This document shows positions 1 to 46,875 of a stretch of DNA of 64,000 nucleotides, piece by piece (position 1 is the first letter of the stretch; each line of letters starts with the position of its first letter). Location of the stretch: the NCBI GenBank assembly GCA_963693095.2, contig OY843768.1, positions 1,280,001 through 1,344,000 on the forward strand. Direction: 5' to 3'. Made by a program: the position numbers and the translations under genes. This stretch comes from Cenarchaeum sp. GTDB taxonomy: Archaea > Thermoproteota > Nitrososphaeria > Nitrososphaerales > Nitrosopumilaceae. A model generated the notes under the pieces. That model was given only the letters and a program-made list of their open reading frames with translations. It was not told the DNA's origin and did not search any database.

Positions 1-3000
1 GCCGGTCGCAGAGTCATGCAGCGTAAAGGCCGAGGCCGGAGGCGTGTTGACCGGCTCGCTAAAGGCGACTATGAGCGTGTCGGCATCAACAAAGCGCGCG
101 TGCAGGATTTCCGGACCGAGGCCGTCGGCGGCGACATCAGTCCAGTCTGCAGCCTCGCCTGCGTACACTATGCGCGGCGTCGCATCAGTCGCCAGTGGCG
201 CATCAATGTGCGCGCGGACCGTCTGCGCGCCTGATATATCGACGCTCGAGGAGGGCAGCGCGCCGCCAATGGAGACGCCAGAGGCCACGACACCGTCGAC
301 GCGTATGTCTGATGCTGCCACGGTCGCTGTCCCCGTGAACGTGAACGCCATGTCCACTGCAGTAGTGCTCGCCGTCGTGGCCTCAAAGAGCGGCGTATAG
401 GTGGCGCTCAGCGCAGGGCCAGAGTACGGCACAAACGCGGCGTTGGAGACGCTCGGGACGATGGTGTATGACCATCCGGCCACGGCGTCACCGGCGAGGG
501 TGAGCGTGACGGCGCTCGTGTCGGCATTGTACGAGACGCCGGCCAGCTCCACGCCAGACGTGATCACGCCATCTGTGACACTGACTGCAAAGTTGTCCGG
601 CCCGAGCGAGGCGCCGCCGGCCAGCGCGTCATCAAAGTCCACCAGTATCGCCCTTGTGCCCACAAATATCGTGGACTCGGCGACAGGTGCTGACGCGTCG
701 CGCGTGATTGCGATCCTGACATCGCCGTACGCCACTGGCACAGACGCCTGGTCCGTGAGCGCACTAGTGGCCGCCAGGTGGTACACGCCCTCTGCGCTCA
801 CCTGCGCGTTGAGATCAAGCGTGATGACTGACTCGGCTATGCCGCCGGCCGGAGACGAGCGCTCAGGCGTGCCCGTGGCCGCGGCGAGCTGCATCCCGCC
901 CGTGGCCGCATCATGCAGCGCAAAGGCCGAGGCCGGAGGCGTGACTACTGCCTCGCTAAATGCGAGCTCTATCGTGTCATCATCAACAAAGCGCGCCGAG
1001 AGTACAGTCGGCGGCGCGCCGTCAGTCGCCGTGGCCGCGCTCGTCAGTACCGCCGCACCGGCAGTCAGGCCCGTGCCGTCATAGGTGACGCGCGGCGTCG
1101 CAGCAGTCGTGGGGAGCTCCCCGTGCGTGATGACTAGCTGCGTGGCCGCCGGACTCGACGGTATGGCCGGCGTGGCCGCATCACCGGCGCCCGTGGCAGT
1201 CTCTGGCGTCGCAGTCACAGAGCCGGCTGTTGCCACCGTGGAGACTGACGCCGTGCGCACAACGTCATCGCCGTCGGCCACGGTCCAGGCACCGGCATCA
1301 AGCGTGCCGCCAAGGGACTGCGTGAACGTGACGCGCGTCTGCGTCGCGCCTATCGTCTCGGCCGTAAACGCGGGGTCGCTGTACGTGACTGTGAGCCTCG
1401 ATGCGTCAAAGGCGTTTGGCGGGACTGCCAGGTCAGCCAGCGTGGATGGCACAAAGACTGTGTACGGGACCCCGGAGATCGTGTTGGCGATGCCTAGGCG
1501 AACCACCGAGGCCGACGCGCCGGCTGCCACCGAGGTGATCTCGAGCTCGTGGCCGGTGAACGGATCGGGCCTGACCTCCCAGCCAGTCGCCGGCCTCGTG
1601 ACTGGCTCGCTGAACGCAATGTCAATGTGCGTCGAGCCGACAAAGGCCGCCGAGACCAGGCTCGGGGGAGTGGTGTCATAGGCAACTCCCGTCGTGAGCG
1701 GAATCACGGCCCGTCCGGTGCTATCGACGTACAGCCTGTACTCGTCAGAGGCCCTGCTCACCGAGGTCTCTGGCGAGTAGCGGATCACGTGCGCCGTGTC
1801 TGAGCCGAGCGCATCAGAGTCCCGCAGGGTCAGCCGCATGGTCGTGGCGCCTTCGTCGGCACGCTCGCCGAACACGAGATCGGCGCCCTCAAAGCGCACC
1901 GTGCCCAAGGTGCCCGAAGAGCCCACCCTGGGCAGGTCGTCTGGCGTGTTGTCAACGATCCAGTGCTTGCCCGTGGCCACAAACGGCACAAACACGTTCG
2001 TGCTGTCGACAAGACTGCTCACGCCGTGATACTCCCCGTCGCCCGAGACGACAGCCTCGGTGAACGTGAGCTCGACTTGCGTGGGTGAGACGATGCGTGC
2101 CGTAAAGACCGGCTGCTCGTCAGTCGTGAACGTAAAGGGTATTGTCACGAGCGGATTGTTGTCGTCTAGTGACGCGTCGCCAACCGAAAAGAACTTTTTG
2201 AGTGATGTGGGAATCTCGACTGCATACGACGGCGGTGTCGCAAGGGCAGAGTGCGAGCCATCGACGTGTAGCGTTATCGTCGAGCCATCAGGCGTGCCGA
2301 CGTATGTCGTGACCCTTGCGTCAAAGGCCTCGCCGAGTGCCACGCCGCCGGGCAGGCCAGCGCGCACGGGCGCGACGCGCAGCGTGCCCCACCCGTCAAG
2401 CTGGCTCATGCTCGCCATGCCGGCAAGCGTTCGCATGTCCGGCACGTTGTTCCCGCCAAAGTGCAGGATTATCTGCGATGCCTCGCCGGTGCCGTCACGG
2501 CGCACAATGTCCACCGGCGGGCGAACGCTCTCAGTCGAGCCGGCAAACAGTCCGCCGTTGACGTTTGCTATCGTGGCGGGCAGCACGACAGAGTACCTGC
2601 GCACGTCTGCCCTGTCGGCAAGGTCCACTATGATCGTCATTGCGTCAGCGGGGTCGATGCGTGCTGCGTGTGCCGTCGTACCGCCTATGGCCGGCGTTAT
2701 CTCGAGTGTGGACGGGACTGAGGAGGCGAGAAGGTCGTCATCAAATGTCACGCGGAGCTCCTCGTACGCCGAAAAGTCCACGCCAGAGAGCCCGATGATG
2801 CCGTCAGTTGCTACCACCGAGGCCGCCGCCACGGGGTTGTTCGTGGGCACGTCGCCTGTGCCGGCAGTCAGCGCGTCGGCGAGATAGTTGGAGCTCGGCC
2901 GCACATAGCTGACCGTCGGCGTGGCATCCTCGCCAAATGGAGTGTCGACTGTGAGCGTATAGACCGTGCGCACAAGCTCGCCTGCCGGCGTCGTCGCGCC

Positions 3001-6000: not shown

Positions 6001-9000
6001 CGTGAATTGTGCCCCTGTGAACGTCGGCGGCGCCTCGTCAGTCAGCGTGGACGGCGAGGTCGGAATCGTGTTACCTGCCTCGTCCCTAAACGGTGAGCTC
6101 GCCGGCGGCGTGTAGACGATCGAGGCCGGCGTGAGCGCCGGTGATGACGTGAGGTCAGTGGCGCGCGAGGCACCAAGTGTGAGCACAATGCCGGAGGTAG
6201 ACGACACCGAGCCTATTGCCTGGCCTCCCACCGTCCAGTTCGCACTAGAGATCGAGCCGGTCACGGTTTCGCTAAAGTCCAGCGCTATGGTCGACGAGCT
6301 TGTGAGGCGCGCGCCAAAGATAAGCGGCGCGCCGTCAGTGGCCGCAGTGTCGCGCGTGGCGACATCCGAGGTGCCCTCGGCGAGGAACCCGCCGGCCGGC
6401 CTGTCGGCAGGCTTTGCGTACGCGACTTGCGGCGTGGCCGCCGTCGAGGAGAGCGCAGGGTGCGTGATGAGCAGGTGCTTGGCAGTCGAGGCGTCCGGTA
6501 TGGCAATCGGGGTGTCTGCCGTGGCCGCAGTCGTCGTCGCGGTGCCGTCGGCCTCAGCAGTCGCCACGCTCGACGGCGTGTGCTCCACGTTCATCGAGTC
6601 GGCCGTGTCGTTGTCCGTGACCGTCCAGTCGTCCACGTCGAGCGTGCCCTCGAGCGCGGCGCCGGTAAACGTGACGAGCGTAGTCGTGAGGCTCCTCGTG
6701 GCTGCCGTGAAGGGGCTCACCACGACGGGCGCCGTGTACGCCACCGTCTCGGCCACGGCCACAAGCGCGTTGCCGGCTAGGTCGAGGACCGTGGCAGGTA
6801 TGCTTACTGCATAGTCCCCGTCCGTGTCGGCGTTAACGTCGACGCTGATAGTCATGCCGCTCGCCGTCGCACCGTACGGCGTCGGGACTCCAGACGGCGG
6901 CGTGACCGATATGTCGCCGGTGACCGTGACGTTCTCGCTGAACGTGAGGACGATGTCATTGCCGTCAAACGCCGAGCTCACAAACGTCGGCGCAACCTTG
7001 TCCACGATGGGCACGTCATCGGCCGTGCTGCCCGTCGCAAAGCCCGACTCGGCCACCGCGCCTGACGCCGTCGTTATCGTGCCGGCCACCGTGCCGTCGG
7101 TGACCGATATCGAGAGGGCCATCGTGCCCTCGGGCGCCGAGACGCCCACGGACAGGTCGTACGTCCACTCATTCGGCTCCCCTGTGACGGCGTTCATGTC
7201 GATGTTCGTGACCCCGGCCCCGTTGAGGACGGGCCTCGCGGTGATCGCCTCGTTGAGCGTGAGCCGTATGCTCACGTCGTCGTTGAGCTTTGCGTAGAGC
7301 TCCGAGGCGCCGGACTTTGCCATGTCGGCAGTCACGAAGCCGTCGTACACCGTAAAGGACATCGCAGTCGCCAGCGGCGGCGCGTCATAGGTCGCCGTGG
7401 CCGCCGCGCCGGCGTACGCGTTGCCGGCCCTGTCGGTGACGGCCGCCAGCGCGACAGAGTACGACCCGCCCTCGACTGGGAGCGCCGTGACGGTGAGGAC
7501 TGCGTCCTGCGCGTCTGCGTCCCTCGGGCCGGGCGTGCCCGGCGCCGGCGGCGTGAGCTGCAGCGTGGCCGGAGAGACCACGTTCTCGCTGAACGTGATG
7601 ACAAGCGAGCGGCCCGAGAAGGCCGCGGACACTAGCGTCGGCGCCGTGCTGTCAATGGTGGGCAGCGCCGTAGGCGCGGCGCCCACGTGGCCGGCCGTCG
7701 GCGTTATAGGCATCGACGCGCCGGCGGCGTTGGCCGCAGTTATCGTAAAGTCCAGCTCGCCCTCGGGCGTCGTGTCCGAGACGGCGAGGTCATAGTGCCA
7801 CGTGCTCGCGTTGCCGTCTCCCCTGTCGTCCATCGAGGCGCCAGTCGTGCCGGCCACGTCTATGGTCGGCGTGTCCGAGACGTCCTCGTCGAGCGTGAGC
7901 AGGAGGCGGACCGTCTCGCCCTCTTTTGCGTGCAGCGCATAGTCGCCGCCCTTTAGCGTGTTGGTGCCCGGGGCCGACGTGTGGACCTCAAAGGAGATCG
8001 AGGCGGCCCTCGGCGGCGCGCCGAACTCGGCGCCTCCCGGCACGGCCGTGTTGGCAGTCAGGCCGTTCCCCCCCTCGTCGTCTATCCCGCTCAGGATCAG
8101 GGCGTACGTGCCCTCGGCCACACTGTCGCGCAGCTCGAAGCGCAGGCCGGTGTTCGGCCCGTGCTCGTCACCGGGCGGATCAAAGGGGTTGGGGGCCGCA
8201 TCCGTGGACACTGGCGCCGTGCCCGTGGTGACCTCGGCGCCGTTGGCGGTGACCGACAGGGGGAGGGTGGTGGGCCTCACGACTGCCTCGCTAAAGATGA
8301 CCTCTACGGCGTTGGCCGCCGTAAAGCTGCCCTCCACAGGGGCCGGCGGCGCGCCGTCGGTGGCGGTGACGGGGCTCATGCCAGTCGAGTCCACCGCGTT
8401 GCCGACCCTGTCGGCCAGGAGCGCCTGCCCCGTGGCCAGATCGCCCTCGGCCGGCCGCACGTACGAGACCTCCGGCGTCGAGGCCGTCGAGGGGAGATCG
8501 CCGTGGTGGAGGATCACCGTGAGCTCCCCGCGCGGCCCTGTCGTGTCTGCGCCCATTGGCGCCTCGCCGGGCAGGTTCACGCCCGTGACGGTGGGCGTGG
8601 AGCCCCCGTCCGAGACTGACCAGTCGGCCGCGCGCGCCGTGCCCACGATCGGCTCGGCGAATGTGAGCGCCGTGCGCCCCGGAGCCTGCGTCCTGGCCGT
8701 GAACGCCGGCGGCGTGGTGTCCTCCACGGCAGACGAGGTCCCGTCGGCCAGCGCGTTGCCGGCCGCGTCGACTAGCGAGCCGGCCCTGTCCGTCTCGCCG
8801 TCCGACGGGACGTCGAGCGTGAGCGTGATCGGCCTGTCCGCGTGGAAGATGTTATAGCTGGGGTCGAACCGTCCAACGCCCGCCGCGGGCACGACCGTGG
8901 CGGTGCCGGCGGCCAGGTCAACGGTGGCCGTCACGGCGCCCAGCGTGGCGTCGGCGGTGTCCCCGAGGTTCCTCCCGCTGAACGTCCAGTCGTCCTCATT

Positions 9001-12000
9001 CGGCAGCGTCTTGCCGGTGGCCATCGAGACGGTCTCGGAGAAGGTCACGGTGTGGACTGGGCTAGCGGTGCCGGTCAGCGGCCTCTCTACCGTAAACGTC
9101 GGCGGCGCGCCGTCAGTCACTGTCTCGGCCGTGGCCGTGTCGCCAGCAGAGGCCGCAAGGTGGAGCGTTGCAGAGTTTTGGATCGTGTTGGTGCCACTAG
9201 ACGGGCGCGTATAGACCACGTTCGCCGTGGTGATCGCAGTCAGGCCGCCGGTGCCGTCGGGGTCCTCCAGGCCCGTGGAGGGGCGCTCGATGAGCTCGAG
9301 GACGATCTCTGTGTCGCCAAAGGGCGAGGACGGCGTGACTGTGCTGACCACAGAGCCGCCGACGCGCCACTCAGTTGCCGCCGTCGCGCCAACGACTGGA
9401 TCGCTAAACGTGATCGTCACGGTGTCCGCCGAGGTCAGCTCGGCGTCAAACGTCGGCGCAGTCGTGTCCACCGCGAACGTTGCCGTCACGGAGGCGGTGG
9501 CAAGCGCGTTACCCGAGACGTCCTCTATATCCGTGGAGAGCTCAACAGAGTAGGTGCCGGCAGCCGGCGAGGAGATCGGGACTGTCACCCTAAATTCGCC
9601 GTCATTGTGGTTCACGGTCACGCCGCTAGTGGTGGACGCAGGCGTCGTGACCTGCAGGCTCGAGGGCATGTCGTTGACCGGCTCGCTGAACAGGATAAAG
9701 ATCTCGCTGCCAAAGAAGACGGCCCTGGCCGTCGGCGCGGTCAGGTCTATGGTCGGCACGGTGACGGTGACCCCAGTGTCCAGGCCGGAGGACTGCGTTA
9801 TGGTCGCATCGTTGCTCGCCGCGTCGGCGGCCATGATCGTGAACTCAAAGGCCGCCTCGCCCGAGGAGGACGTCACGGCCAGGTCGTGGCGCCATGTCGT
9901 GGCGGCGCTGTCGCCGGCGTCGCCCATCGGCGTCGCCGTCGGCGTCCTGCCCGCGCCGGGCACCACTATCGTCGGCGCGCCGGCGGCGTCCTCGTTGAGC
10001 GTCAGTATCAGGCGGATCGTGTCCCCGTCGCTGGCGAGCAGCCTGCTGTCGCCGGACTTTAGCGTGCCGGCATCCGGCGTGCCGTCGTACACCTCGAAGG
10101 CTATCGAGCTTGCGACTGGCGCCGTCGTGTCTGACGTCGAGCGCGTCGCAGTCACAGTCGCGCCGGACACGGTATTGCCATGAAGGTCACTGACTTGCGG
10201 GTCGGGGGTGACCGTGTACTCCCTGGCGGCGACGGCGTCAGCGGCCAGCGTGAGCGTGTACGCGTCGGGAGCCGTTTGCGCGACGGATGCCACGTCCACG
10301 TTGCCCATAGGCGATGTCACCGTCCACCCGTCGTCTGTCGCGTACCCCAGACCGGCAGGAGCCATGGTGAACACGACAACCTCGCTAAACATGACTGTGA
10401 TCATGCGGGCGCCCGCAAACGCGGCGGACGCGGCTGTCGGGCCCGTTTGGTCATTGGCGGAGGCGACCACGGTGGCGCTCTGCAGGCTGTTGGCCGTGCC
10501 GCCGGGCACCACGTCAGAGAGCCCGTCAGACGGCATCGTAAACCTCACCGTGGGGGTCTCCGTTATCGCCCACTTGAGATTATCGTTGTGGAGTTGCGTA
10601 AGCCCGACATACAGCAGGCCGGTGAACGGTGGGTCAGGCGGTATCGTGACGTCTCCCCTAGTACCACTAGTCGCTCCATTGTCCGTGGTCGCCGCCGCTG
10701 CCGCAGTCAGGGTCGTTTGGTCGGCGTCAAGCACGCCCACTGCCCACTCGGCGGCCATTGTCGTGCCCTGTATGGGCTCGTCGAACTTTACCACGACATG
10801 CGTGGTGTTGAACACGCGCGCCGTGAACGTCGGCGCCGTGGTGTCAGTCTGCGTCGATGCCGTGTACGTCGCCATCACCGTGGCGCCGTCGCCTATCTCG
10901 TTGGCCGGCACGGCAAGGTCGGCGATGTCGTCGGCCAGGTTGATCGTGTACTCCGTGCCGGACGTGGCCGCCGAGACGGTGAGCGTGTACTCGTCGTCTG
11001 TGTGGTCCACGCCTGACACGGCCAGGCCGGTCACAGACCAGTCGCCTGATGCCGAGGAGAAGCCGGTCTCGCCGGTCACGGTCTCGCTGAACTCCACGAT
11101 GATCGTCGTGGCGCCGTCGAACTCGGCCTCAAACGTCGGCGTCGCCCCGTCGGCTATCGCCGTGGCCTGCAGGGCGGTGCCGGAGGTGCCAAGGTCGTTG
11201 TCCGCGTTGTCCTCTATTGCCCCCTGGGACGGCGCCGTGTACGTGACGCCCGCGGCAGTCAGTCCGCCGAGGTCGGTGCTTGGGCGCGATGCGGCGAGCG
11301 TGATGTAGAGATCCTCGGTGTCGGCGAGCGTCACGGTGCTCACGCCCGTCGCGCCTTCAGTCAGCGAGAGCGACGCGGGGGCAGAGCCGGCCACTGCCCA
11401 CTCGCCAAACGCCGTCGAGCCGTCAACGTCCTCGCTAAAGGTGATCTTTACCGTGTCCGCAGACATTAGCTCTGCGCTAAACGTCGGCACAATGCCGTCA
11501 GCAGCACGCACGCCAGTCGTGATGAGCGGCGCGCCATTGGCGCCCTCAAGGTCGGCTGCGTCGCCGGGCACGTACGTTATGATCGGCGCCTGTGTCACCG
11601 TCAGCGGCGCGTGCGTGAGCGTGACTGTGGGCGCAGTGCCAGCCGCCGTGACTGCCGCAAGCGAGACGAGCCTCTGCGAGGCAGAGACGAACGGCTCTCC
11701 GTCGGCCCTCGCCGAGTCCTCGACGCGCCACTCCACCTCGTCGAGGTCAGTCGACGTCGTGACTGACGAGGCCAGCGCGCCGCCAAACGCGAGGACAGTG
11801 GTCATCGTCGACGTCGCGCGCGCCGTGTAGGCCAGCGGCGCAACGACCGTGTGCGTCTCAGAGGCGGCGGTGCCGGCGTACGCGTTGCCCACGGTGTCAG
11901 TCACCGTGGTAGCCGGCGTGACCGTGTACGTCGTGCCCTCGACGAGCGGGGAGTCAAGCGTGATGACGACCTGCGTGCGAGGCGCGTCAGTCCTCGACCT

Positions 12001-15000
12001 CAACGGAGCCTGGCCAATGAGCACGCCATCGTCTATGCCAGGCGTGCTCGTGTCGTCTGCGATGACACTTGCCGTTCCGGGCGACAGCATCACGGGGAGC
12101 GATGTCCTGGTGAGCGTCTGGCGATTCATGAATTCGTTGAACGTCAGCGTTATCGTCGAGCGCGTTGTCGACTCGTTCGTTTCGGTCGTTACAGGGTTGT
12201 CAAGAGGCGTGCCGAGCACGATGGTCTCAACAGTCGGCGCCGTCGTGTCGACTGTCACTGCCAGGGGCCGCGGCGCCTGGCTCGGCAGGCCCGTCGTGAC
12301 ATGCTCTATCCTCTCAGTCGGCATGCCCTGGTCAACTGTCGTCGCGACGTGCGAGACGACTGTGTCTGCGCCCACGTCTATCCAGAGCGACAGGAGGCCG
12401 TCGGGGTCTGTGGCCGCCACGGTGTGCGTGTTCGTGTACGTGTTGGGCAGCACGCCCAGGCTGCTACTGTCCAGGGCCATGGCAGTTGCCGTCGCGCCTG
12501 TCGTAAAGAGCCTGATCTGCGGCGCCGAGGCCGGCGTTGAGTCAAGCGTGATGCTGAACGTGACCTTGTAGCCCGGACCGACAAGAGTCGGCGGGATCGC
12601 GGGGGTGTCGCCGGCGGCGAGCGTGCGCAGCGTGAGTGACGTGGCGGACGGCACGATGGAGCCCATTATGCCGTCAGTTGCCATAACCGTCGCAACCCCC
12701 AGCTCGTTGGACGTGGGCGTCTCCGTGTCGCGCAGGCCCCTTGCCGGCGATGACGGGGGCGGGAGCGGAGCCGCATCAGATGCCGGTGCCGTGTATATCA
12801 CGCTCGGCGTATCATCAGCCCCGAGGGTTGGGCTGAGCTGCAGTGTCATCGAGGTGATCGGGTCGGCGATTCTCACGATCATCGGGCCCAGGACCAGCGG
12901 CGGTGGCTGTGCAATGCCTCCGACAAATCTCGGAATCATCGACGTCCTGGCGGGCACGCCGTCGACTGTCGTCGCCGTGATTCCCGTGGGCGTGGTGCCG
13001 CCGACGCTCCAGTCGACTGTAGCCGTTGCGCCATAGACCTGCTCGTCGAACGTTATCGTGACGTGGCCGGGCCTGACGGTCTCGGCGGTGAACGTTGGCG
13101 CCGTCATGTCAGCGGCGACCTTTGGCGTGACTAGCAGTGCATTGCCCGAGTATGCGTTGGAGTTTGCGTCCATTATCGTAGCCGGTGTCGCCACGGAGAG
13201 CTCGACTTCGGCAGTCGCGTCCCCGGCGAGCGTGATGGTGACTGTCGAGAAGGGCGCCGACGTGGCGTACATTGGAGTGGTTGTCTCGTGCAGTGGGACT
13301 GTCGCGCCGCCCTGTTCGTTCACCGTGATCGTGTACGTGCTCGGCAATGTGTCCTCATCGAGCGGCTCGCTGAACGTGATGACGATCACGTTGAGGCCAT
13401 CAATCGTGATCCGCGCAGTCGGCGGCGCCTTGTCCTCCGCCAATACCGTGACTGGCGTGCCGACGGTGCCCCGATCGGCGCTGCCGTCGTTCAGGACGGC
13501 GGTGCCAGACGGCCTGGTATACGACACTGTGGGCGTGGCCGCAGTGTGGGCCAGCGCGTCATCGCGGGCCAGGTGCAGCGTGATCGTTGCGGCATCCGTC
13601 AGCTCCTGCATGCCCGCAAGCGGGCTGCCGTCCCCGACTGTGATGCGATCAGGCGTCGCGGTGCCCACGCGCCACTCGGCCGGCGCAGTCATGCCCGTGA
13701 CCGCAGGCACAAACGTGACCAGTACATCCCTGTTTGATCTCGTCTCGGCCGTAAAGAAGACTGACGGGTCTGACACCATGGTAGACTCGGCGGCGAGAAC
13801 ATCGTTTGCCGGCGTGGCGAGATCGTCGATCGTGTCGGCGACATTGACGGTGTACGACGTGCCGGGTGCGGCACCCGAGCCCAGCGTGAGCGTGTACGTC
13901 GCCGGAGACGCAAAGGCGACGCCGGTCACGTCAAGGTCGCCTCCTGAGGCAGTCACGGTCCAGCCGGCAGTCCCTGAGGGGGAGACGTCAGTCACGGCCT
14001 CGCTAAAGGTCACAGTTATCATATTGTACTCGGTGAACGTGGCGCTCATTATCTCCGGCCCTAGGGCGTCAGTCGCAGCCACCGTGACCGCAGACGTCGC
14101 GGAGTCAAGCGCTATGGCGTTGCGGGCAGCGTCGACTATGTCCGTGCCCGTGTACTCTACTGTCGGCGCAAATGACGTGTCGGCGATCGTCGCGTAAGTG
14201 AGCGTCACCGTGCTGCCCGAAACGTCGACGCCGGAGATCATAGCCTCCGTCGCGCCGTCCTCTGCAGACCACTCGGTGGCGACGCCGGCTCCCGTGACGG
14301 CTTCTGAGAGCGTGACAGTCAGCATGCCCGTCGTCGCCGTGGCCGCCGAGGAGAGCGTCGGCGCGTCCGAGTCGACTGTCACGTTCGTGCCCTCCAGGTC
14401 AGCCTGCGTGTACGTCGCCTCGTTGCCCGCAGTGTCGCGTATCGTCAGGGTGAACATGAGCAGGCCGCCGGCATCCGAGTCGAGTATTTTGCGCGAGTAG
14501 AAGTAATCGCTGAGCGTGCCGTCGACCACCGGGCCGGTGATGAACACAAGGTCGGCGGCAGTCGTCGTCCCAAAGAGCGCAATGTCGCTGGATGCCGCGA
14601 CGAGCGGCTCGCTGGCATCCGCGTTGACGATGACGAAGTCATCGATGCCGGCAAGGGTGACAGTGGACGAGGCTGACTGATCGCCCTCGAGCCTCACGCT
14701 CGCAGTCAGCATCGCCGTCGGCGCGACGCGGTCGATCGTCGGCGGCGCCGTAGCCGACAGGGTCGCCTCGTCCACAGGGCGCGTCGAGCCCGAGGCGGCC
14801 GTCACCGTCGCGTCAAACGTGAACGCGCCGTCGATGGTGCCTGCAGACTCTACGACATACGTCGCGCGCCACTCGTTCGTGCTCCCGACGCGCGCCATGG
14901 CCACCGTGTTGGCGTCGTCTGCCATCGTGGCCGGATCGTCAGTCTTGCCCACAAAGAGCACGCTCACCGAGGTCGCCTCGCCGTCAAGCGTGATCGAGAG

Positions 15001-21000: not shown

Positions 21001-24000
21001 CGAGGAGAGATCGTCGTGCGTGATGAGCAGGTGCGTGGCAGTCGGGGAGTCCGGTATGGTCGCAGTCGAGCCCACCGTGGCCACAGTCGCCGTCGCCGTG
21101 CCGTCGGCTCCGGCAGTCGCCACGCGCAATGTCGTCAGCGCCCCGTTGTCTGCCATGTCAGTCGCGTCGTTCTCGGTGACGGTCCAGTCACCCACGTCGA
21201 GCGTGCCGGCCAGGTCGCCGCCGTCAAAGGTGACGAGCGTCGTAGTCAGGCTCCTCGTGGCGGCCTCGAAGGGCGCAAGCGTGTACGTCGCGCTCGCAAT
21301 GCTTAAGGCAAGCGCGTTGCCGGCCAGGTCGGTGATCGTTATCGGCAGCTGCACGGCCCACGATCCTGCCAAGTTTGCCATGGCCTCCACGGTGAGGACG
21401 GCGCCCTCGGCGCTAGCGTCCCTAGACGCAGGGTTGCCGAGCCCAGTCGGCGGGGCGACAGTCACGGTGAACGTGTCCGGCGTCACGATCACCTCGTTGA
21501 ACGTGATCACAATCGAGGTGCCCCTAAAGAACGCCGGCGTCGCCGCATCAAGCGTCGGCGCAGTCCGGTCAACGGTGGGCAGCTCGACTGTGATGTCTCC
21601 GGCGTGACCGTCCGAAGCCGTTATCTGTCCGTCGATGCCGGCGGCATCCTCGACATCTATGGTAAAGTCAAACGGCGCAGCAGGCGACGTCTCGGGAGTC
21701 GTGGCCGACACGGCGAGGTCATAGTGCCACGTGCTCGCGTCGCTGCCGCCCGTGTTCACCATGGACTCGCCCGTGAGCCCGCCGACGTCGATCTCTGGCG
21801 TGCCAGAGGCATCCTCGCCGAGCGTGAGCAGGAGGCGGATCGTGTCGCCGGCCGCAGCATGGAGCCTCGAGGCGCCGGACTTTAGCGTTAACAGGTTCAG
21901 CGCGTCAGCGCCGCCCGTGTTGGTGTCATCGTACACCTCAAAGGATATCGCAGTAGCCCTCGGCGGCGCGTCATAGGTGCCCGTGGCGGCCGCGCCGGCG
22001 TACGCGTTGCCGGCCAGGTCAGTCAGCGTGGTCGGCAGCGCCACAGAGTACGCCCCCGACGCGCGTGTGGCATCGAGCACGGTGACGACCGCGCCGGCAG
22101 GCATGGTGTTCCTGTCCATCGCATCAGACGCGCCTGACGGCGGCGTGACTCGCAGCATGGCCGGAGAGACGACTGGCTCGCTGAACGTGAGGACGATCGA
22201 GTAGCCCGAGAAGGCAGTCGTCGTGAGCGTCGGCGCCGTGCGGTCTATGGTCGGCACGTCCGCCGTGCTGCCGCTGGCCATCGGGGTCTCCTGCGTTATG
22301 GGCTCAGGGTTGCCCTCCACTGTGATCGAGAACGTGAACGGCGCAGTGGGCGAAGTCTCGACTGTCGTGGTGCCCACGATGATGTCGTGGTGCCACGTCG
22401 TGTCCAGCGCGTCGCCATTGTTGCCCATCGTCGTCGCCGTCGGCGTCCTGCCCGTGCCGGGCACCGTCACTGACGGCGCGGCGGTGACGCCCTTGTCGAG
22501 CGTGAGCACGAGGCGGATCGTGTTGTCTGCCATCGCGTGGAGCTCCGAGGCGCCGGACTTTATCGTGGACAGGTTCAGCGTGTCGGCCGTTCCGGAGCCG
22601 TCAGTGTCGGTGTCGCCGTACACCGCAAAGGATATCACAGTCGCCATCGGCGGCGTGCTGAACTCGGCGCCTCCCGGCACGGCCGTGTTGGTGGCCAAGG
22701 GGTTGCCCACGCCCACCACGTCTTTTATCCCGCTCACGGCCAGGGCGTACGTGCCCTCGGCCACATGGGCGTCCAGCGTGAAGCGCAGGCCGGTGTTCGG
22801 CCCATAGCCCTCGTCGGCTGGGTCAAAGAGGTCGGCGTCGTCATCGACGCTGCCCGTGGTGACCTTTGTGCCGGCCATGGTGGAGACCGTCAGGCGCTCG
22901 ATGCCGCGGCCGGGATGCGCGACGGCCTCGTCAAAGAGGACCTCGACGGTGTCTGACGCCGTAAAGCGGCCCACCGCCGGAACCGGCGGCGCGCCGTCGG
23001 CGGCCGCGACTGGGCTGCCGACAGTGGAGCCCACGGGGTTGCCGGCCCTGTCGGCCAGGCGCTCCTGCTCCCCCACGAGCGTCGCCGAGTCGTCGTACAG
23101 GACGCCCGGCGTCGAGGCCGCCGACGGGAGGGCGTCGTGGTGGAGGATTATCCTGTCCGTCCCGGCCTGCGGGATCTCGACTGTGGCCGACGGCCCGTCG
23201 GAGCCCACGGTCACGTCATTGACTGTGATGCTGCCCCCGTCCGAGAGCGACCAGTCGTCCGCGCGCGCCGTGCCCACGAGCCGCTCGGCGAAGCGGATAT
23301 CCGTATGTGTCAGGCTCTGCGTCTCGGCCGTGAACGCCGGAGGCGTGGTGTCCTCCACGGCAGACGAGGTCCCGTCGGCCAGCGCGTTGGCCGCCGGCGA
23401 GGTGTCGGCTATCGAGTTCGCCCTGGCGTCCTCGCCGTCCGGCACGTTTAGCGTGAGCGTGATCGTGGCGAGGTCGAACGAGGTGGAGTAGCCGCCCCTG
23501 CTATCTGGCGCCGTGATCGTGGCGGTCTGCGCGCCCAGGTTATAGGCGACATTCGAGGCGGCCAGCGTGGCGTCGGCCGTGTCGGCGGCGTTCCTCCCCG
23601 AGAACGTCCAGTCGGCGGCCGTCGGGAGCGTCTTGCCTGTGGCCTGCGAGACGGGCTCGGAGAAGGTCACCGTGTGGACGGCGGTGAACAAGCTGTCCGT
23701 GGAGTCAGTCAGCGGCCTCTCTACCGTAAACGTCGGAGGCGCGCCGTCAGTGGCCGCAGTGTCGCGCGTGGCCACCTCGGATGTGCCCTCGGCGAGGAAC
23801 CCGCCAGTCGGCCTGTCGTCAGGCTTTGTGTACGCGACGTTCGGCGTGGCCGCCGTCGAGGAGAGCGCGTCGTGCGTGATGAGGAGCTGCTTTGCAGTCG
23901 AGGCGTCCGGTATCTCGGCCGCGGAGCCCACCGTGGCCGCAGTCGTCGTCGCGACGCCGCTGAGCGCAGTCGCCACTCTCGACGTCGTCAGCGCCACGTT

Positions 24001-30000: not shown

Positions 30001-33000
30001 GTACGTCGCCGGAGCCTCATAGTCGACGTCGGTCACGCCAAGGTTGCCCTCCGTAGCAGTCACGGTCCATTCGGTCGTCCCTGACGAGGAGACGTCAGTC
30101 ACGTCCTCGCCAAAGGTCACCGATATCGTCGTCGCGTCGGTGAACGAGGCCGACTCGATGGACGGGGAGACCTCGTCGGCGGCCACGACTGGGCTGGCGC
30201 CCGTGGAGGCCAGCACGGCGCTATCAGCGTCGGCGATTAGCGGGGTTGCAGCCGGCACCGTGTACGCCACGTCCGGCGTCGCGTCGTCGTCCTGCGCGTT
30301 GGCAGACGCGAGTGTGAGCGTGATCGTCTCGACTGCAGTCGTTATCGTGATCGCCGCGTCGTCGACCGTCGTGGACGTGCCGTCCGTGATGGACTCGGGC
30401 GCCTCGCCGGCGACGCTCCACTCCATGCGCGCCGTGCTGCCCTTTAGATCCTCCGAAAAGGTCACAGTCACTGACGTCGGCGTGTCAAGCGTCGCCGACG
30501 CCACTGTCGGCACCACGCCGAGCGTCGCGCCACCAGGCACCCCCGTGGTCAGGCGCAGGCGGACGTCGCCATGGTCCACTATCCCGCTCACGGCAAAGAC
30601 ATAGTCGCCCCTGGGCACCGACGCGTTCAGCGTGAAGCGCAGGCCTGTGCCTGCGGCATAGCCCGCGTCGACTGGGTCAAAGACGTCAGCGGCGTTATCG
30701 ACGCTGCCCGTGGCGATCGCATTGGCCGAGAGCTGCCGAATCCCCGGCACGAAGACATGCAGGCGCTCGCCTGTAGGCTGCATGGCGGGATCGTCAAAGA
30801 GAACCTCGACGGTTCGCGCGTCAACAAAGCGAGCCTCATCGGGATGCGGTCCGAGGCCGTCAGCGGCGCGGACGGGCTCATCGCCCGTCGAGAGCATGAC
30901 GTTGCCAGACGCGTCGGCCAGGCGCACCTGCCCGGCAACGAGCATAGTAGAGGCGTCGTACGCAAAGTCCGGCGTCGAGGCCGACGAGGCAACCCTGGGG
31001 TGGACGATGTCTATGCTGGCCAGAGCCGATGCGATGAATAGGCGCTGGGTGGGCGAGGCAATGCCTATGGCCTGCATCTTGGTGCCGTCCGCGCCCTCCT
31101 TGAACGACCAGTCAACTGCGCGTATCGTGCCGGTGACAGGCTCGCTAAAGGTGAACCGCGAGGCTTCCAGTGCCAGCGTCCGGACCGTGAACGTCGGCGG
31201 CGCCTTGTCAGAGACTGCCGTGGCCGTGGCCATCCCGCCGGCAGTGGCGACGAGGTCGTTGCCAGAGGCGTCTGTGATCGTGTTGGCCGCAGTCGGCGTG
31301 CCGGCCGCGGGGCGCGTATAGACCACGTTCGCCGGCGTGATCGCCACGAGTGGGCCGGTGCCATCAGGGTCGGCCAGTGCCGTGCCCACGCGCGAGGCTG
31401 ACAGCGTGAGGGTGATCTCCTCGACTGAGGACGGCGAGGACGGCGTTACTGTGCTGACTGTCAAGCCGGCGACTCTCCACTCATCAGGTGCTGTCACGCC
31501 GTTGACAGGCTCGCCAAAGTCGATCGTAACGGTGCTCGCAGACGTGAGCGTCGCGGTGAACGCCGGTCCGGCCGTGTCCACCAGCGGGAGCGTGGCCGCA
31601 ACGCCGCCGGCGGCGTACGGCAGGTATGCGGCGTTGGCCAGCAGCGACGTCGGCGTGATCGTGTGGGCTACGCCGCGCGTCGCATCACCGGCAAGCAGAA
31701 GCGTGACTGTGAGCGCATCTGCGTCATAGGTGACAGCGCCAGTCGAGGCCAGCGCGACGCCGACTGGGTCTCCGCCAGGCGTAGAGTTGGGCACCGTCAC
31801 GCCAAAGTTGCCTGCCACGACTGTCCTCTGCGCGAGCAGCTCGTTAAAGGTGAGCACGATGGTGCGATCGCCAGAGAATGCCGCGCGGAACGTCGGCGGC
31901 GTCGTGTCGTACGTCACGCCCACCGAATCCTCAAACTCGTTGCCGTTCACGTCCTCTATGGTGCCCCCGCCGATCGTCAGCGCATAGAGCGTCCCGTCAG
32001 CAGCAGTCGAGACGCCAGGCGACAGCGGGAGCGTTATCGTGCTGCCCGAGGAGCTCACCACGCCAGCTGTGGGAATCGGCGCCGTTAACACCATGCTTGT
32101 GAACGCAAACGTGAGCCCCGAGGGCAGCGTGGCGAGCGTCTCGGTAAAGGTCAACGTCATGCCGTTGCCGTCAGTCGCAAAGACTGCGCGATCCAGCCTT
32201 GGGTTGGCCTCGTCGGTCACTGCCGTGGACATGGCCCTCGAGCCGGCGGCAGCAAGGTCGTTGCCGGTGAGGTCCGTGATCGTGTTCGACGCAGTCGGCG
32301 TGCCGGCCGCCGGGCGCGTATAGACCACGCTCGCCGCGCTGAGCGCAGTCAGGCCGCTGGCGCCATCGGGGTCAGTCAGGTCTGTCGTCGCGCGCTCTTC
32401 GGCTAGCGTGAGGGTGATCTCCCTGACCGAGGAGGGCGAGGACGTCGAGGACGGCTCGACTGCGCTGACTGCCGAGCCGGCGACGATCCACTCTCCGGGC
32501 GCCGTCGTGCCGCGAACGTCCTCGTCAAACCTGATCGTCACGGTGCTCGCAGACGTGAGGGCCGCCGTGAACGTCGGCGCAGTCGTGTCTGGCGTGTAGT
32601 CCGTCTCCGACACGACGGCGACGAGCGCGTTGCCGGCAAGGTCGGTGATTGTTATCGGCAGCTGCACGGCCCACGACCCCTGACTGTTGGCCCCCACTGC
32701 CACGGTGAGCATCGTGCCGTCGGCCTCGGCGGCGGCGTCCGTGAATGCGCTGGACGGCGAGGCGACGCGCACGGTGAACGGGGCGTCTGGCGTCACGATC
32801 ACCTCGTTGAACGTGATCACCATCGAGGTGCCCCTAAAGAACGCCGGCGTCGCCGCATCAAGCGTCGGTGCGGTTCGGTCCACGGTGGGCAGCTCGACTG
32901 TGATGTCTCCGGTGTGGCCGTCCGCAGCCGTTATCTGTCCGTCGATGCCGGCGGCATCCTCGACATCTATGGTAAAGTCAAACGGCGAGGCCGCCGCCGT

Positions 33001-36000
33001 CTCGGGAGTCGTGGCCGACACGGCGAGGTCATAGTGCCACGTGCTCGCGTCGCTGCCGCCCGTGTTCACCATGGACTCGCCCGTGAGCCCGCCGACGTCG
33101 ATCTCTGGCGTGCCAGAGGCATCCTCGCCGAGCGTGAGCAGGAGGCGGATCGTGTCGCCGGCCGCAGCATGGAGCCTCGAGGCGCCGGACTTTAGCGTTA
33201 ACAGGTTCAGCGCGTCAGCGCCGCCCGTGTTGGTGTCATCGTACACCTCAAAGGATATCGCAGTAGCCCTCGGCGGCGCGTCATAGGTGCCCGTGGCGGC
33301 CGCGCCGGCGTACGCGTTGCCGGCCAGGTCAGTCAGCGTGGTCGGCAGCGCCACAGAGTACGCCCCCGACGCGCGTGTGGCATCGAGCACGGTGACGACC
33401 GCGCCGGCAGGCATGGTGTTCCTGTCCATCGCATCAGACGCGCCTGACGGCGGCGTGACTCGCAGCATGGCCGGAGAGACGACTGGCTCGCTGAACGTGA
33501 GGACGATCGAGTAGCCCGAGAAGGCAGTCGTCGTGAGCGTCGGCGCCGTGCGGTCTATGGTCGGCACGTCCGCCGTGCTGCCGCCGGCTAGCGCAGTCTC
33601 CTGCGTTATGGGCTCAGGGTTGCCCTCCACTGTGATCGAGAACGTGAACGGCGCAGTGGGCGAAGTCTCGACTGTCGTGGTGCCCACGATGATGTCGTGG
33701 TGCCACGTCGTGTCCAGCGCGTCGCCATTGTTGCCCATCGTCGTCGCCGTCGGCGTCCTGCCCGTGCCGGGCACCGTCACTGACGGCGCGGCGGTGACGC
33801 CCTTGTCGAGCGTGAGCACGAGGCGGATCGTGTTGTCTGCCATCGCGTGGAGCTCCGAGGCGCCGGACTTTATCGTGGACAGGTTCAGCGTGTCGGCCGT
33901 TCCGGAGCCGTCAGTGTCGGTGTCGCCGTACACCGCAAAGGATATCACAGTCGCCATCGGCGGCGTGCTGAACTCGGCGCCTCCCGGCACGGCCGTGTTG
34001 GTGGCCAAGGGGTTGCCCACGCCCACCACGTCTTTTATCCCGCTCACGGCCAGGGCGTACGTGCCCTCGGCCACATGGGCGTCCAGCGTGAAGCGCAGGC
34101 CGGTGTTCGGCCCATAGCCCTCGTCGGCTGGGTCAAAGAGGTCGGCGTCGTCATCGACGCTGCCCGTGGTGACCTTTGTGCCGGCCATGGTGGAGACCGT
34201 CAGGCGCTCGATGCCGCGGCCGGGATGCGCGACGGCCTCGTCAAAGAGGACCTCGACGGTGTCTGACGCCGTAAAGCGGCCCACCGCCGGAACCGGCGGC
34301 GCGCCGTCGGCGGCCGCGACTGGGCTGCCGACAGTGGAGCCCACGGGGTTGCCGGCCCTGTCGGCCAGGCGCTCCTGCTCCCCCACGAGCGTCGCCGAGT
34401 CGTCGTACAGGACGCCCGGCGTCGAGGCCGCCGACGGGAGGGCGTCGTGGTGGAGGATTATCCTGTCCGTCCCGGCCTGCGGGATCTCGACTGTGGCCGA
34501 CGGCCCGTCGGAGCCCACGGTCACGTCATTGACTGTGATGCTGCCCCCGTCCGAGAGCGACCAGTCGTCCGCGCGCGCCGTGCCCACGAGCCGCTCGGCG
34601 AAGCGGATATCCGTGTGTGTCAGGCTCTGCGTCTCGGCCGTGAACGCCGGAGGCGTGGTGTCCTCCACGGCAGACGAGGTCCCGTCGGCCAGCGCGTTGG
34701 CCGCCGGCGAGGTGTCGGCTATCGAGTTCGCCCTGGCGTCCTCGCCGTCCGGCACGTTTAGCGTGAGCGTGATCGTGGCGAGGTCGAACGAGGTGGAGTA
34801 GCCGCCCCTGCTATCTGGCGCCGTGATCGTGGCGGTCTGCGCGCCCAGGTTATAGGCGACATTCGAGGCGGCCAGCGTGGCGTCGGCCGTGTCGGCGGCG
34901 TTCCTCCCCGAGAACGTCCAGTCGGCGGCCGTCGGGAGCGTCTTGCCTGTGGCCTGCGAGACGGGCTCGGAGAAGGTCACCGTGTGGACGGCGGTGAACA
35001 AGCTGTCCGTGGAGTCAGTCAGCGGCCTCTCTACCGTAAACGTCGGCGGCGCGCCGTCAGTCACTGTCGAAGCCGTGGCCGTGCCGCCAGAGGCAGTCGC
35101 AAGGTGGAGCGTTGCAGAGTTTTGGATCGTGTTGGTGCCAGTGGGCGGGCGCGTATAGACCACGTTTGCCGTGGTGATCGCAGTCAGGCCGCCGGTGCCG
35201 TCGGGGTCCTCCAGGCCCGTGGAGGGGCGCTCGATGAGCTCGAGGACGATCTCTGTGTCGCCAAAGGGCGAGGACGGCGTGACCGTGCTGACCACAGAGC
35301 CGCCGACGCGCCACTCAGTCGCCGCCGTCGCGCCAACGACTGGATCGCTAAACGTGATCGTCATGGTGTCCGCAGACGTGAGCTCGGCATCAAACGTCGG
35401 CGCAGTCGTGTCCACCGCGTACGTGGCCATCACGGAGGCGGTGGCAAGCTCGTTGTCCGAGACGTCCGTTATGTCCGTGGAGAGCGCAACAGAATACTCG
35501 CCGGCAGTCGGCGCGGGGATCGGGACTGCCACCCTAGGTTCGCCGTCATTGTGGTTCACGGTCACGCCGCTAGTGGTGGACGTAGGCGTCGTGACCTGCA
35601 GGCTCGAGGGCATGTCGTTGACCGGCTCGCTGAACAAGATGGCTATCGCGTTGCCAAAGAAGACGGCCCTGGCCGTCGGCGCCACACTGTCGGTGACTGC
35701 AGTGGCAGTGGCCGTCCCGCCGGCGGTGGCGAGGTCGTTCCCAGAGCCGTCGGCGAGCGTGTTGGACGCAGTCGCCGAGTCGGCCGCAGGGCGCGCATAG
35801 GCCACGCTCGTCGTGCTGATCGCAGTCAGGGCGCCGGTGCCGTCGGGGTCCTCCAGGCCAGTGGAGGGGCGCGCCGCATCAAGCGTGAGGACGATCTCGT
35901 CGACTGAGGATGGCGAGGACGGCGTGACGGTGCGGACAGTCGAGCCGGCCACTGTCCACTCTTCAGGCGCCGTCGTGCCGCTGACATTCTCGTCAAACAT

Positions 36001-44284: not shown

Positions 44285-44291
44285 TTATAAG
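44285..44291 (-). promoter_or_regulatory. Probable TATA box of the giant gene
   Basis: TTATAA lies 17-22 nt upstream of ATG 44268. The spacing is short, so the Met at 44235 may be the true start. Confidence 0.5.
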
Positions 44292-44302
44292 CATAATGGC
44301 AA

Positions 44303-44471
44303 AAAATAGCACGATCAGGCCCTGATCGCGCCCCCCCCCCCCCCCCCCATTTTTGGGGGGGTGAACGTCGGACCGCAAGACGCCAGACTGCCAAGTCGGC
44401 ACAGGTGGGCATTGGGCCGGCGCAGGCCGACAGGCCAGCAGAAGAGTCCCGTGTCGCACTTTGCGCAGGGC
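44303..44471. repeat. Intergenic direct repeat copy 1 (palindrome + C18 tract + conserved core)
   Basis: CGATCAGG-C-CCTGATCG inverted repeat, C18 (44331-44348), ATTTTT-G7, and a 46 bp core (44414-44459) identical to 48219-48264. Confidence 0.92.
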
Positions 44472-44529: not shown

Positions 44530-45477
44530 CTATTTGGCGCGAACTGTAAACCCTGGGAGTGAGTTTGCCGAGCCGCTCTCGGCTGTGGCGCAATAGCGCG
44601 CAACAGTCAGCTCGCCATCCTCACAGTGAACTGCAGTGGGGCCACTGATGAACAGCGGCCCGCCGCGCATAGATGTAACATAGGCCATGTCATCAGGAAT
44701 ATTGTCATTTTGCAGAACCGTCAGTCCGGGGAATCGAAAGACATTGCTGTACGGCGAGTCTGCGGCATCGTCATGCTCTACTGTTATGGACGGATTCACA
44801 AACATCGTGTCGAGCCGGTATGGCAAGTCACCACCAAGGCTCTTGACAAGGTTCAGTGCAAGACTTGAGGATATTGGGCGGTCGATATTTAGGGTCGGCT
44901 CGTGTTCGGGGAGCTCGGCAAGCCGTTCCAGGCAAAGTGCGTCCTCAAAGGACCAGATTTTTGGCATGATATCGTTGAGAAGTCCTGACGGGCCGGGATT
45001 GTCAAGCAGGCGTTTGGAGACGGAGAATATTCCAGGACGCATGCCAATTGATCTATCAGGTAAAGGAAATCGCATAACTCCATAAGGATCTGACGACAAT
45101 TGGAATGCCATATCGTCAAGAGATAGCGCCTCAGGGCGGATTGTGTGAAACCCATATGGTAGGGGAGCTGGCATCGGATATTCAAAAAAAGACTCAATTT
45201 GAGGCTTGGGATCCTGTGAAGGGTATGTAAGCAGGCTATGATCATTTGACGTATATTTCACACGAGTATATTCCGGATCATCATAGTCAATATTGTCAGA
45301 GACACCAACATGGTACACGCAATCGAGATGCTTATTCGCGTTGTACAAGATGATTGCAGAGCTACCAGGAGAAAGAGGGCAGCATTGGACACGGCCACTC
45401 GCAGTCGATCGATTTGACCCATGATGCAATTCGTGTATATGGACTAGTGCTAGCGGCAACTCTTCGGGCACATACAT
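44530..45477 (-). CDS. Hypothetical protein, putative divergent HK97-fold capsid-like protein (paralogue A)
   Basis: The ORF extends to 45663; the likely start is MYVPEE at 45477. Paralogous to 46876-47988. Motifs FSVSKRLLDNPG...IWSFEDALCL, LDTMFVNP and PGLTVLQNDNIPDDMAY resemble HK97 major capsid spine-helix and A-domain motifs. The CDS is likely; the fold call is tentative. Confidence 0.6.
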   Translation of the reverse strand: MYVPEELPLALVHIHELHHGSNRSTASGRVQCCPLSPGSSAIILYNANKHLDCVYHVGVSDNIDYDDPEYTRVKYTSNDHSLLTYPSQDPKPQIESFFEYPMPAPLPYGFHTIRPEALSLDDMAFQLSSDPYGVMRFPLPDRSIGMRPGIFSVSKRLLDNPGPSGLLNDIMPKIWSFEDALCLERLAELPEHEPTLNIDRPISSSLALNLVKSLGGDLPYRLDTMFVNPSITVEHDDAADSPYSNVFRFPGLTVLQNDNIPDDMAYVTSMRGGPLFISGPTAVHCEDGELTVARYCATAESGSANSLPGFTVRAK

Positions 45478-45763
45478 GTCAAGGCTCACACGCCAGGGCA
45501 ACAGACGGAAAGATATACGTGTTTGAGCAGAAATGGCACAAGTCCTGCAATATATGCGGCAAGGATCAGTGCGCGCGCATCGCCCTGAGGAGATGGCATG
45601 GTGTGAGACTTGGATAAACGGCCTTGCCGATACCCGCACTCCTGAACAGTCTCCCCTAGGCACGCTCTTTGACCAGCATGTGACAAAAGGCTGTCAGTCA
45701 TTTGTGGCCAGGCACGGGATCGCGCACCCAAACCCCCAAATCGCCATCGGATCACATGGCGCA

Positions 45764-46780: not shown

Positions 46781-46875
46781 TCACGTGACATGTCCCGTGC
46801 CATCCATTGTCAGTAGGGTCATGCGCGCGCACGGGCAGCCGTGCCGCAGGCGAGCAGGGACAGATCCGTGCGCAG

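Follow-up and report, generated by a model that had tools for sequence, protein, structure and literature searches.

A Cenarchaeum gene of about 25,600 codons encodes a secreted array of beta-sandwich domains that ends in a conserved module

Is an open reading frame (ORF) that fills more than 44 kb of an archaeal genome a genuine gene, where does it end, and what could its product do? These questions are raised by a 64,000-nucleotide (nt) stretch of Cenarchaeum sp. DNA (hereafter the window), which covers positions 1,280,001 to 1,344,000 of contig OY843768.1 (C1) in GenBank assembly GCA_963693095.2 (G000; 2,003,945 bp in two contigs, 99.55% complete). A sequence-only reading of the window had proposed a single minus-strand frame, open from a signal-peptide start at position 44268 to the window edge and encoding a surface protein of at least 14,756 amino acids (aa). 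The frame is as proposed: it is continuous over window positions 1 to 44499 (14,833 codons), runs off the left edge, and contains no stop in the 14,756 codons between the ATG at 44268 and base 1. The longest other ORF overlapping window positions 1 to 44499, a plus-strand shadow, encodes 519 aa. The GC contents at codon positions 1, 2, and 3 of the giant gene are 0.60, 0.57, and 0.82, which is a strong coding signature, and the GC content within the gene is 0.62 to 0.71, compared with 0.52 to 0.66 in the flanks. By our own arithmetic, ~2.4% of random codons would be stops at 66% GC, and an open run of this length is therefore not due to chance. The locus is a genuine protein-coding gene of ~25,600 codons (77 kb) in an ammonia-oxidising Cenarchaeum archaeon.

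The main frame extends 29.4 kb leftward beyond the window. Counted from stop to stop, it runs from C1:1324529 down to 1250628 (24,633 codons), and counted from the signal-peptide ATG, it runs from C1:1324268 down to 1250631 (24,546 codons). Its final ~65 residues are arginine-rich nonsense, and a tail frame shifted by -1, which opens at 1250895, resumes the interrupted domain and continues for 1,061 codons to C1:1247710, adding 3.2 kb. The size first given for the protein was exact within the window, but the full protein is ~10,800 residues longer; similarly, no in-frame stop or frameshift is present across the window part, but one 1-nt frameshift lies to the left of it. The leftward extension, which was meant to locate the stop and any anchor, reached the stops of both frames but no anchor.

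At the frame junction, near C1:~1250834, G000 lacks one G of a GG pair relative to G004, a single-contig genome of the same genus, inside DNA that is ~99% identical in the nucleotide alignment. In G004, the orthologous gene reads through without a break for 25,697 codons, or 25,609 when counted from the corresponding signal-peptide ATG, and it lies in conserved synteny, with both flanks 90 to 96% identical in nucleotide sequence to those of G000. The frame-restoring base is present at full depth in all four public runs compared, which come from three studies, and the intact reading is, according to these four runs, the common form. A tally of indels between public contigs and G000, covering 12 of 36, comprised the frame-restoring base and 11 others that were compensated +1/-1 pairs or a 3-nt insertion, and the reading frame is therefore preserved. 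The paired +1/-1 indels, which are 2 to 5 nt apart (L010:6400-6403, 7656-7658, 9108-9113, 9566-9568, and 12402-12404), are frame-preserving micro-shifts in the giant gene that alter one or two residues. A programmed frameshift was ruled out, because the junction has no slippery heptamer and the G004 ortholog simply has one extra base. In G004, ~3.5 kb (G004:C1:1042375-1045958; L022) separates the stop of the giant gene from the conserved downstream flank. This segment is absent from G000, adjoins a second copy (90% identical) of the last 40 residues of the C-terminal module described below, and is possibly an insertion with target duplication.

The placement of the organism among Nitrosopumilaceae and ammonia-oxidising archaea was borne out by its rRNAs, its AmoA, its relatives, and a precedent for its GC content. 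The Rfam archaeal small-subunit (1,457.6 bits) and large-subunit models score best at the rRNA locus, and the genome encodes an archaeal AmoA (389 bits). An objection based on the GC content of 60 to 66% was dropped in view of these archaeal markers and of the high GC of sponge-associated Thaumarchaeota, which is reported in passages of PMC6697440.

The encoded protein is composed almost throughout of beta-sandwich domains. Self-built profiles mapped 202 domains, namely, 147 A domains (103 positions), 40 B domains (100 positions), and 15 tryptophan-bearing C domains, which cover 88.5% of the main frame and leave nine residual gaps of 68 to 285 residues, and 202 is a lower bound on the domain number. 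The window part holds 122 domains (95 A, 19 B, and 8 C), within the 120 to 135 estimated earlier. Profile comparison with hhalign identified C as a variant of A (probability, 88.7%) and detected no relation between B and A (4.5%). The A copies are mutually 16 to 30% identical, and the repeats are thus old and diverged. The domains are acidic, and conserved Asp/Asn residues are found at their ends. Each of the six pieces into which the main frame was divided exceeded the gathering cut-off of Pfam Big_5 (PF13205; 23.6 bits), with scores of 53.9, 74.8, 104.3, 98.2, 39.8, and 118.9 bits and 24 individually significant stretches across the frame; the tail, at 21.8 bits, fell below the cut-off. This agrees with the immunoglobulin (Ig)-like repeats of ~100 to 130 aa that had been described for the window. 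Of the Pfam families for which a match had been anticipated, Big_5 was found, but SWM_repeat and Big_13 had no match at an E value of ≤0.01 in any of the seven scanned pieces, which cover the whole protein. The repeat consensus, said to recall SwmB and SbsA, was reproduced by profile A, but no likeness to SbsA-type proteins was found beyond the generic tandem-Ig fold. Apart from Big_5, the same Pfam scans gave weak CopC-like signals, no enzymatic domain, and no RTX/haemolysin-type calcium-binding family. An A-B-A triplet was modelled with AlphaFold2 on an alignment of 20 natural triplets (A2), which yielded an all-beta structure of three sandwiches with a predicted local distance difference test (pLDDT) score of 86.5 and a predicted TM score of 0.76. 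Its best Foldseek matches are titin Ig81-83, SiiE, FMG1B, SbsB/SbsC, GhpA, and the ice-binding adhesin MpIBP. The mass is 2,489 kDa for the main frame and 112 kDa for the tail (~2.6 MDa in total), and the main frame contains 13 cysteines.

The last ~630 residues form a non-repeat module of two beta-rich sub-domains and two terminal helices (model mean pLDDT, 76.8). In G000, the module also terminates 9 to 10 paralogs. It was detected in 16 of the 41 related genomes, among them each of the four others in the genus, and at 53 loci in species-representative genomes. Profile A1, built from 30 module copies, matched 1,194 cluster representatives at an E value of ≤0.001 among 1.84 billion proteins, and most of the 150 representatives listed are 400 to 700 aa long with the module at the C terminus. 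The retrieval of longer homologs covered lengths of 1,102 to 3,145 aa, and the 150 listed representatives are at most 6,000 aa long. The invariant and near-invariant columns of the A1 alignment define a core of ~350 residues, with a Cys-x-x-Cys-T-[PH]-P-T-L-G start, NF[FY]NHG, SHG-x-x-R...F, and a terminal helix. Small secreted homologs from free-living Nitrosopumilaceae, such as a 609-aa ORF of the cultured "Ca. Nitrosotenuis chungbukensis" MY2 (L085) and a 480-aa ORF of Nitrosopumilus sp. b1 (L066), combine this terminal stretch of ~350 residues with a signal peptide and with one or two Ig-like domains. Because small secreted proteins of free-living Nitrosopumilaceae end in these residues, the giant is, judged by this shared end, an extreme stalk expansion of a family widespread across Nitrosopumilaceae. 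Two short contigs carrying the module core, L073 (5.4 kb) and L081 (2.8 kb), are filed under gammaproteobacterial and Nanoarchaeota metagenome-assembled genomes (MAGs), which probably reflects incorrect binning and not a transfer of the gene.

The module has no counterpart in the family and structure collections searched. None of the 30 copies matched a Pfam family at an E value of ≤0.01, no NCBIfam match was obtained, the best E value in the PDB profile search was 0.21, and Foldseek returned only generic matches resembling single-chain variable fragments (TMq, ~0.12). DUF7034, DUF7035, and DUF7743 were rejected as assignments, since this atlas lead (0.79) was below trust level and was not confirmed by Pfam. 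Module residues 285 to 454 form a sandwich resembling V-set and carbohydrate-binding-module folds (Z, ~8), which is merely a common fold. In the first sub-domain, which is confined to the Cenarchaeum paralogs, a conserved IWT-x-HFT-x-FG motif stands at the end, between the last strands, and presumably resembles the HFS/HLT self-cleavage sites of Nup98, ZU5 (PIDD), and GPS (GAIN), in which a His-hydrophobic-Ser/Thr site occupies a tight turn between the last two strands of a characteristic fold. The fold searches of the module were dominated by the other sub-domain and barely probed this one. A partial internal copy of the module is present at main-frame residues ~19,476 to 19,760, in a block in common with a paralog, and there the motif reads HMT (residues ~19,745 to 19,760; L011).

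Across the main frame and tail, a Kyte-Doolittle mean of ≥1.9 over 19 residues is reached at one place alone, the signal peptide at the other end of the protein. This peptide is kept in the G004 ortholog, and the paralogs begin with similar peptides ending in A-x-A-Q. No archaeosortase-type signal of the PGF-CTERM or PEF-CTERM kind was detected: the tail contains no hydrophobic window, NCBIfam matched none, and the C terminus is acidic. Upstream of the ATG, a TATA-like stretch may represent the putative archaeal promoter of a near-leaderless transcript. Farther upstream are a palindrome and a homopolymer of 18 G on the sense strand, which is preceded by C7-A5-T (44349-44361), a sequence able to pair with the tract. 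The tract differs in length between G000 and G004 (18 versus 19), as does that at a second orthologous site (13 versus 16), with conserved flanks. Sense-strand G tracts just upstream of six genes of the family account for 6 of the 15 G/C tracts of ≥9 nt on the 1.98-Mb contig, compared with a chance expectation of ~0.1 by our own arithmetic. A seventh tract precedes ORF u3, one of three ORFs upstream of the giant gene, where this upstream element is present as a duplicate that also includes a near-identical copy of the palindrome (window ~48105-48122). The G tracts are possible phase-variation or G-quadruplex switches.

The giant gene belongs to a large family. In G000, 18 frames with A or B domains occupy 356,016 nt (17.8% of the genome) and correspond to 16 genes, with two pairs split by frameshifts. 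The second pair, C1:+515953-564453 (16,166 codons) and +564210-608168 (14,652 codons), overlaps by 243 nt with a -1 shift in mid-domain at C1:~564250, and C1:515953-608168 is probably one gene of ~30,700 codons (92 kb), which would exceed the present gene. A-domain matches were found in 12 of 41 genomes; each of the four further same-genus genomes has many, as does one other genus, and elsewhere such matches were sparse or undetected. In a first look, 575 A-domain candidates were counted in G000 (2.00 Mb) versus 240 in G004 (1.64 Mb), and G004 has no module-carrying counterpart of the 14.6k- and 16.1k-codon G000 frames; the family may account for much of the 0.36-Mb difference in size between these genomes.

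Comparisons within the gene, with the paralogs, and with the G004 ortholog reveal a mosaic interior. The only recent internal duplication is a 2.45-kb segment whose two copies are 97% identical in DNA, so that protein windows at residues 6901 to 7500 are 99 to 100% identical to residues 3131 to 3730. The longest exact repeat is 1,019 bp; the other repeats of ≥1 kb have at most 90% DNA identity, and a few segments of ~430 bp reach ~93%. Collinearity with the G004 ortholog, at 80 to 100% identity, extends over ~4,500 residues at the N terminus and ~4,000 at the C terminus, and the middle is rearranged in blocks. When 81 windows of 300 aa were compared, the best match was the ortholog for 49, a paralog in the same genome for 18, and another part of the same gene for 14. 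Residues ~17,700 to 19,900 are collinear with a paralog at 70 to 86% identity and are absent from the G004 ortholog. The flanks of G000 and G004 diverged by a synonymous distance (dS) of only 0.03 to 0.2 during this restructuring. The dN/dS ratio relative to G004 is ~0.6 in repeat blocks (up to 0.62) and 0.35 in the module, with 0.23 to 0.72 in the flanking genes.

The product is a secreted beta-sandwich array with a conserved terminal module. We consider it likely that this array is a giant Ig-like rod or fibre, held via the C-terminal module, which mediates contact with the sponge matrix or host and whose gene grows by duplication and exchange. The protein would be exported by the Sec route, with cleavage of the signal peptide. 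Ig domains span 3.3 to 4.4 nm each in SiiE and titin, and about 205 to 215 such domains would give a rod or fibre of ~0.7 to 0.9 micrometre. It would be retained at or near the cell through the conserved module, not a membrane anchor, and could bind or otherwise touch host cells or the matrix of the sponge, a role of the kind (adhesin, stand-off, or host-interaction fibre) that the sequence-only reading had suggested. Growth and diversification of the gene would come from duplications within it and from blocks exchanged with its 15 paralogs.

Several observations weigh against this interpretation. The giant gene in the G000 assembly is broken by a 1-nt deletion, 1,061 codons (stop to stop) before its end, and position L010:4728 carries the G004 base, so that the four public runs seem to be G004-like and an assembly error is not proven. 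None of the eight public runs listed as containing this stretch is recorded as an RNA data set. The protein has no C-terminal transmembrane helix or sorting signal; its attachment is assumed, and it could be released. The Pfam, NCBIfam, PDB sequence profile, and fold searches yielded only generic beta-sandwiches, and these do not indicate a function, and the global TM scores of the A-B-A model to solved tandem-Ig rods are low (0.2 to 0.3). In addition, the dN/dS ratios are not below those of several flanking genes, and selection on the protein is weak or mixed; purifying selection as proof of function was dropped for this reason (0.35 to 0.62, not lower than the flanks).

The composition of the protein bears on a different function, that of a polyanionic coat, in which an acidic, extended canopy would gather cations such as ammonium around the cell or protect it in the way suggested for halomucin. 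The isoelectric point (pI) is ~4.05, with 2,959 acidic versus 954 basic residues in the main frame, and the Pfam scans of the seven pieces found no ligand-binding or lectin domain, both of which suit such a coat. A similar role has been proposed for the acidic S-layer of Thaumarchaeota, which such a coat would carry further and whose proteins have pI values of 3.4 to 4.08 and are considered in the context of charged-solute acquisition in passages of Moeller et al. 2019 (PMC6790972). However, a cation trap has no obvious need for 200 distinct diverged domains or for rapid mosaic change, and the expansion is concentrated in Cenarchaeum, not in all ammonia oxidisers. No relation to a solved S-layer protein was found either: a thaumarchaeal S-layer protein was neither a PDB match of A1 (E ≤ 1) or A2 (E ≤ 0.1) nor among the listed fold matches, the presence of that structure in the library being unchecked. 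We regard the coat as an unlikely primary role. The mosaic interior, with blocks in common with paralogs at 70 to 96% identity, the dN/dS ratio of ~0.6, and the G tracts, with 6 of 15 placed before family genes on the sense strand and with lengths that differ between G000 and G004 amid conserved flanks, would also fit a display for evasion, in which contingency genes are switched by poly-G and reshuffled among paralogs against phagocytes or viruses, with adhesion being secondary. The tracts, however, lie upstream of the TATA-like stretch, where a transcriptional effect is only presumed, and the dN/dS ratio is no higher than in the flanks. The literature on poly-G phase variation in archaea gave only general papers on homopolymeric tracts, and we know of no poly-G switch in archaea. 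Evasion as the main function is accordingly very doubtful.

A decaying or artefactual gene, whether a pseudogene or a mis-assembled repeat region, would account for the frameshift, for the second giant pair that is likewise frameshifted in the same genome, for the lack of an RNA record among the eight runs, and for the 1,019-bp exact repeat. It is countered by the single frame break in ~77 kb, by the GC content of 0.82 at third codon positions, and by the intact 25,697-codon ortholog in an independent single-contig assembly with conserved synteny. The intact base in all four public runs, the frame-preserving nature of the listed indels, and the repeats, which are mostly <90% identical in DNA, also speak against it. 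This explanation is largely excluded, and we give it hardly any credence. The fibre reading, which we favour, can also be joined to the G tracts in a bolder form: the 16 genes would constitute a contingency system of mosaic fibres, turned on and off by hypermutable poly-G tracts of 14 to 21 nt that precede their promoters, with block exchange among paralogs, possibly self-cleaved at the HFT motif yet anchored non-covalently by the module. This combination is speculative and improbable as a whole. If true, it would be the first surface system with phase and antigenic variation to be described in archaea, it would have arisen in a symbiont of animals, and the family would include possibly the largest archaeal protein.

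The genes around the giant gene offer no conserved partner. The three upstream ORFs, u1 to u3 (Table 1), matched no family in Pfam or NCBIfam; u1 and u3 are paralogs with 31% identity, of which further copies are found at C1:1.90-1.95 Mb, away from giant genes. ORF u1 is 75% identical to its G004 ortholog, and u2 and u3 are 95% identical to theirs. Neither u1 to u3 nor the downstream membrane and coiled-coil ORFs d1 to d4 recur beside the paralogs, and the idea of conserved partner genes was dropped for this reason. Also downstream, a 421-aa ORF (C1:1242738-1244003, minus strand) consists mostly of near-perfect tandem repeats of ~21 residues with coiled-coil character. Three other neighbours, listed in Table 1, are ordinary flanking genes.

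Table 1. Coordinates of the giant gene, its parts, and neighbouring features (window positions unless C1 is given)
Feature	Position	Strand	Remarks
Giant gene, N-terminal 14,756 codons	1..44268	-	Open frame; GC at third codon positions 0.82; 122 of 202 mapped domains
Signal peptide, residues 1-34	44167..44268	-	Basic n-region, 15-residue hydrophobic core, AAA-Q cleavage-type end
A-B-A triplet, residues 7333-7664	21277..22272	-	Representative; modelled for structure
2.45-kb duplication, first copy	32624..35061	-	Self-blastn; gene nt 9208-11645
2.45-kb duplication, second copy	21311..23751	-	Self-blastn; gene nt 20518-22958
IWT-x-HFT-x-FG motif, tail residues ~683-692	~C1:1248830	-	First sub-domain of the module
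TATA-like stretch, AT-rich	44285..44308	-	17-40 nt upstream of ATG; read from sequence, conserved in G004
Palindrome, 15 nt	44313..44327	-	Between G tract and TATA-like stretch
Homopolymer, 18 G on sense strand	44331..44348	-	63-80 nt upstream of ATG
G tracts, 13-21 nt	44331-44348, 48123-48135; C1:337054, 493170, 515985, 766200, 776010	Sense strand	Six family genes and ORF u3
ORFs u1, u2, u3 (377, 338, 370 aa)	44530-47988	-	Directly upstream of giant gene
Tetratricopeptide (TPR)-repeat protein	52452-53693		Ordinary flanking gene
Radical S-adenosylmethionine (SAM) protein with HMPTM-type zinc ribbon	57825-59489		Ordinary flanking gene
GT4 glycosyltransferase	59554-60501		Ordinary flanking gene

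Proteins of this length have seldom been described in archaea. In West-Roberts et al. 2023 (bioRxiv 10.1101/2023.11.21.568195), few archaeal proteins exceed 10,000 aa, these are mostly from Asgard archaea, and the main text does not mention Thaumarchaeota; like the present gene, the giant genes described exceed 30 kb, occur mainly in complete or long-read genomes, and are broken up in short-read assemblies. The Asgard genes called "giant" in passages of PMC8813620 encode 3,000 to 6,000 aa. The Omnitrophota giants, as far as they are described in the part of the literature consulted, contain many enzymatic domains, and the present protein contains none. The passages of three sponge-thaumarchaeote genome papers that report expanded S-layer-like or surface proteins (PMC6790972, PMC7848895, and PMC6697440) mention none of this size, and the gene was not found described in the literature on giant proteins of Thaumarchaeota or Cenarchaeum, supplementary lists being outside the scope of that search. 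A 2.0-Mb archaeal symbiont genome devotes ~18% of its DNA to one family of giant genes, and this family accounts for a large part of what is absent from short-read MAGs of sponge Thaumarchaeota. The giant fibre is a concrete candidate for the means by which an archaeon stays in position within its animal host. The gene also provides a tractable case of giant-gene growth by domain duplication and exchange among paralogs, and it defines a C-terminal module, unassigned in function, that is widespread in Nitrosopumilaceae.

Giant Ig-repeat adhesins are well known in bacteria, and halomucin is the textbook giant protein of archaea. SiiE of Salmonella (5,559 aa), MpIBP (1.5 MDa), and LapA/LapF likewise consist of one polypeptide with tens to hundreds of tandem bacterial Ig-like domains that forms a long extracellular rod. 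The A-B-A triplet matched SiiE (2yn5; E value, 9.4e-7; TMq, 0.31; and also 2yn3) and MpIBP (5irb; E value, 1.6e-4) in Foldseek, which is an architectural likeness only. These type I-secreted adhesins carry RTX repeats and a C-terminal type I secretion signal and are retained in the outer membrane, whereas the present protein is archaeal, with no outer membrane available for retention, has a Sec-type N-terminal signal and no RTX match, is four to five times longer than SiiE, and ends in a module unrelated to anything solved. SwmB of Synechococcus (10,791 aa) and halomucin of Haloquadratum (9,159 aa) are likewise very large, repetitive, secreted surface proteins, in these cases of marine or halophilic microbes; the present protein has no SWM_repeat match, and halomucin was compared by description only. 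The earlier statement that the giant exceeds both in length was correct, as it is ~2.4 to 2.8 times longer. The small proteins of free-living Nitrosopumilaceae are true homologs of the terminal ~350 residues and likewise have a signal peptide, Ig-like domains, the sandwich with the cysteine pair and PTLG, the NF[FY]NHG and SHG-x-x-R...F motifs, and the terminal helix, but they contain one or two Ig-like domains instead of >200, do not have the HFT sub-domain that precedes the core, and are unannotated or labelled "hypothetical." The giant Ig-repeat surface fibre is a known kind of protein, and the novelty here lies in its occurrence in an archaeon, in its size, in its terminal module, and in how much of the genome the family occupies.

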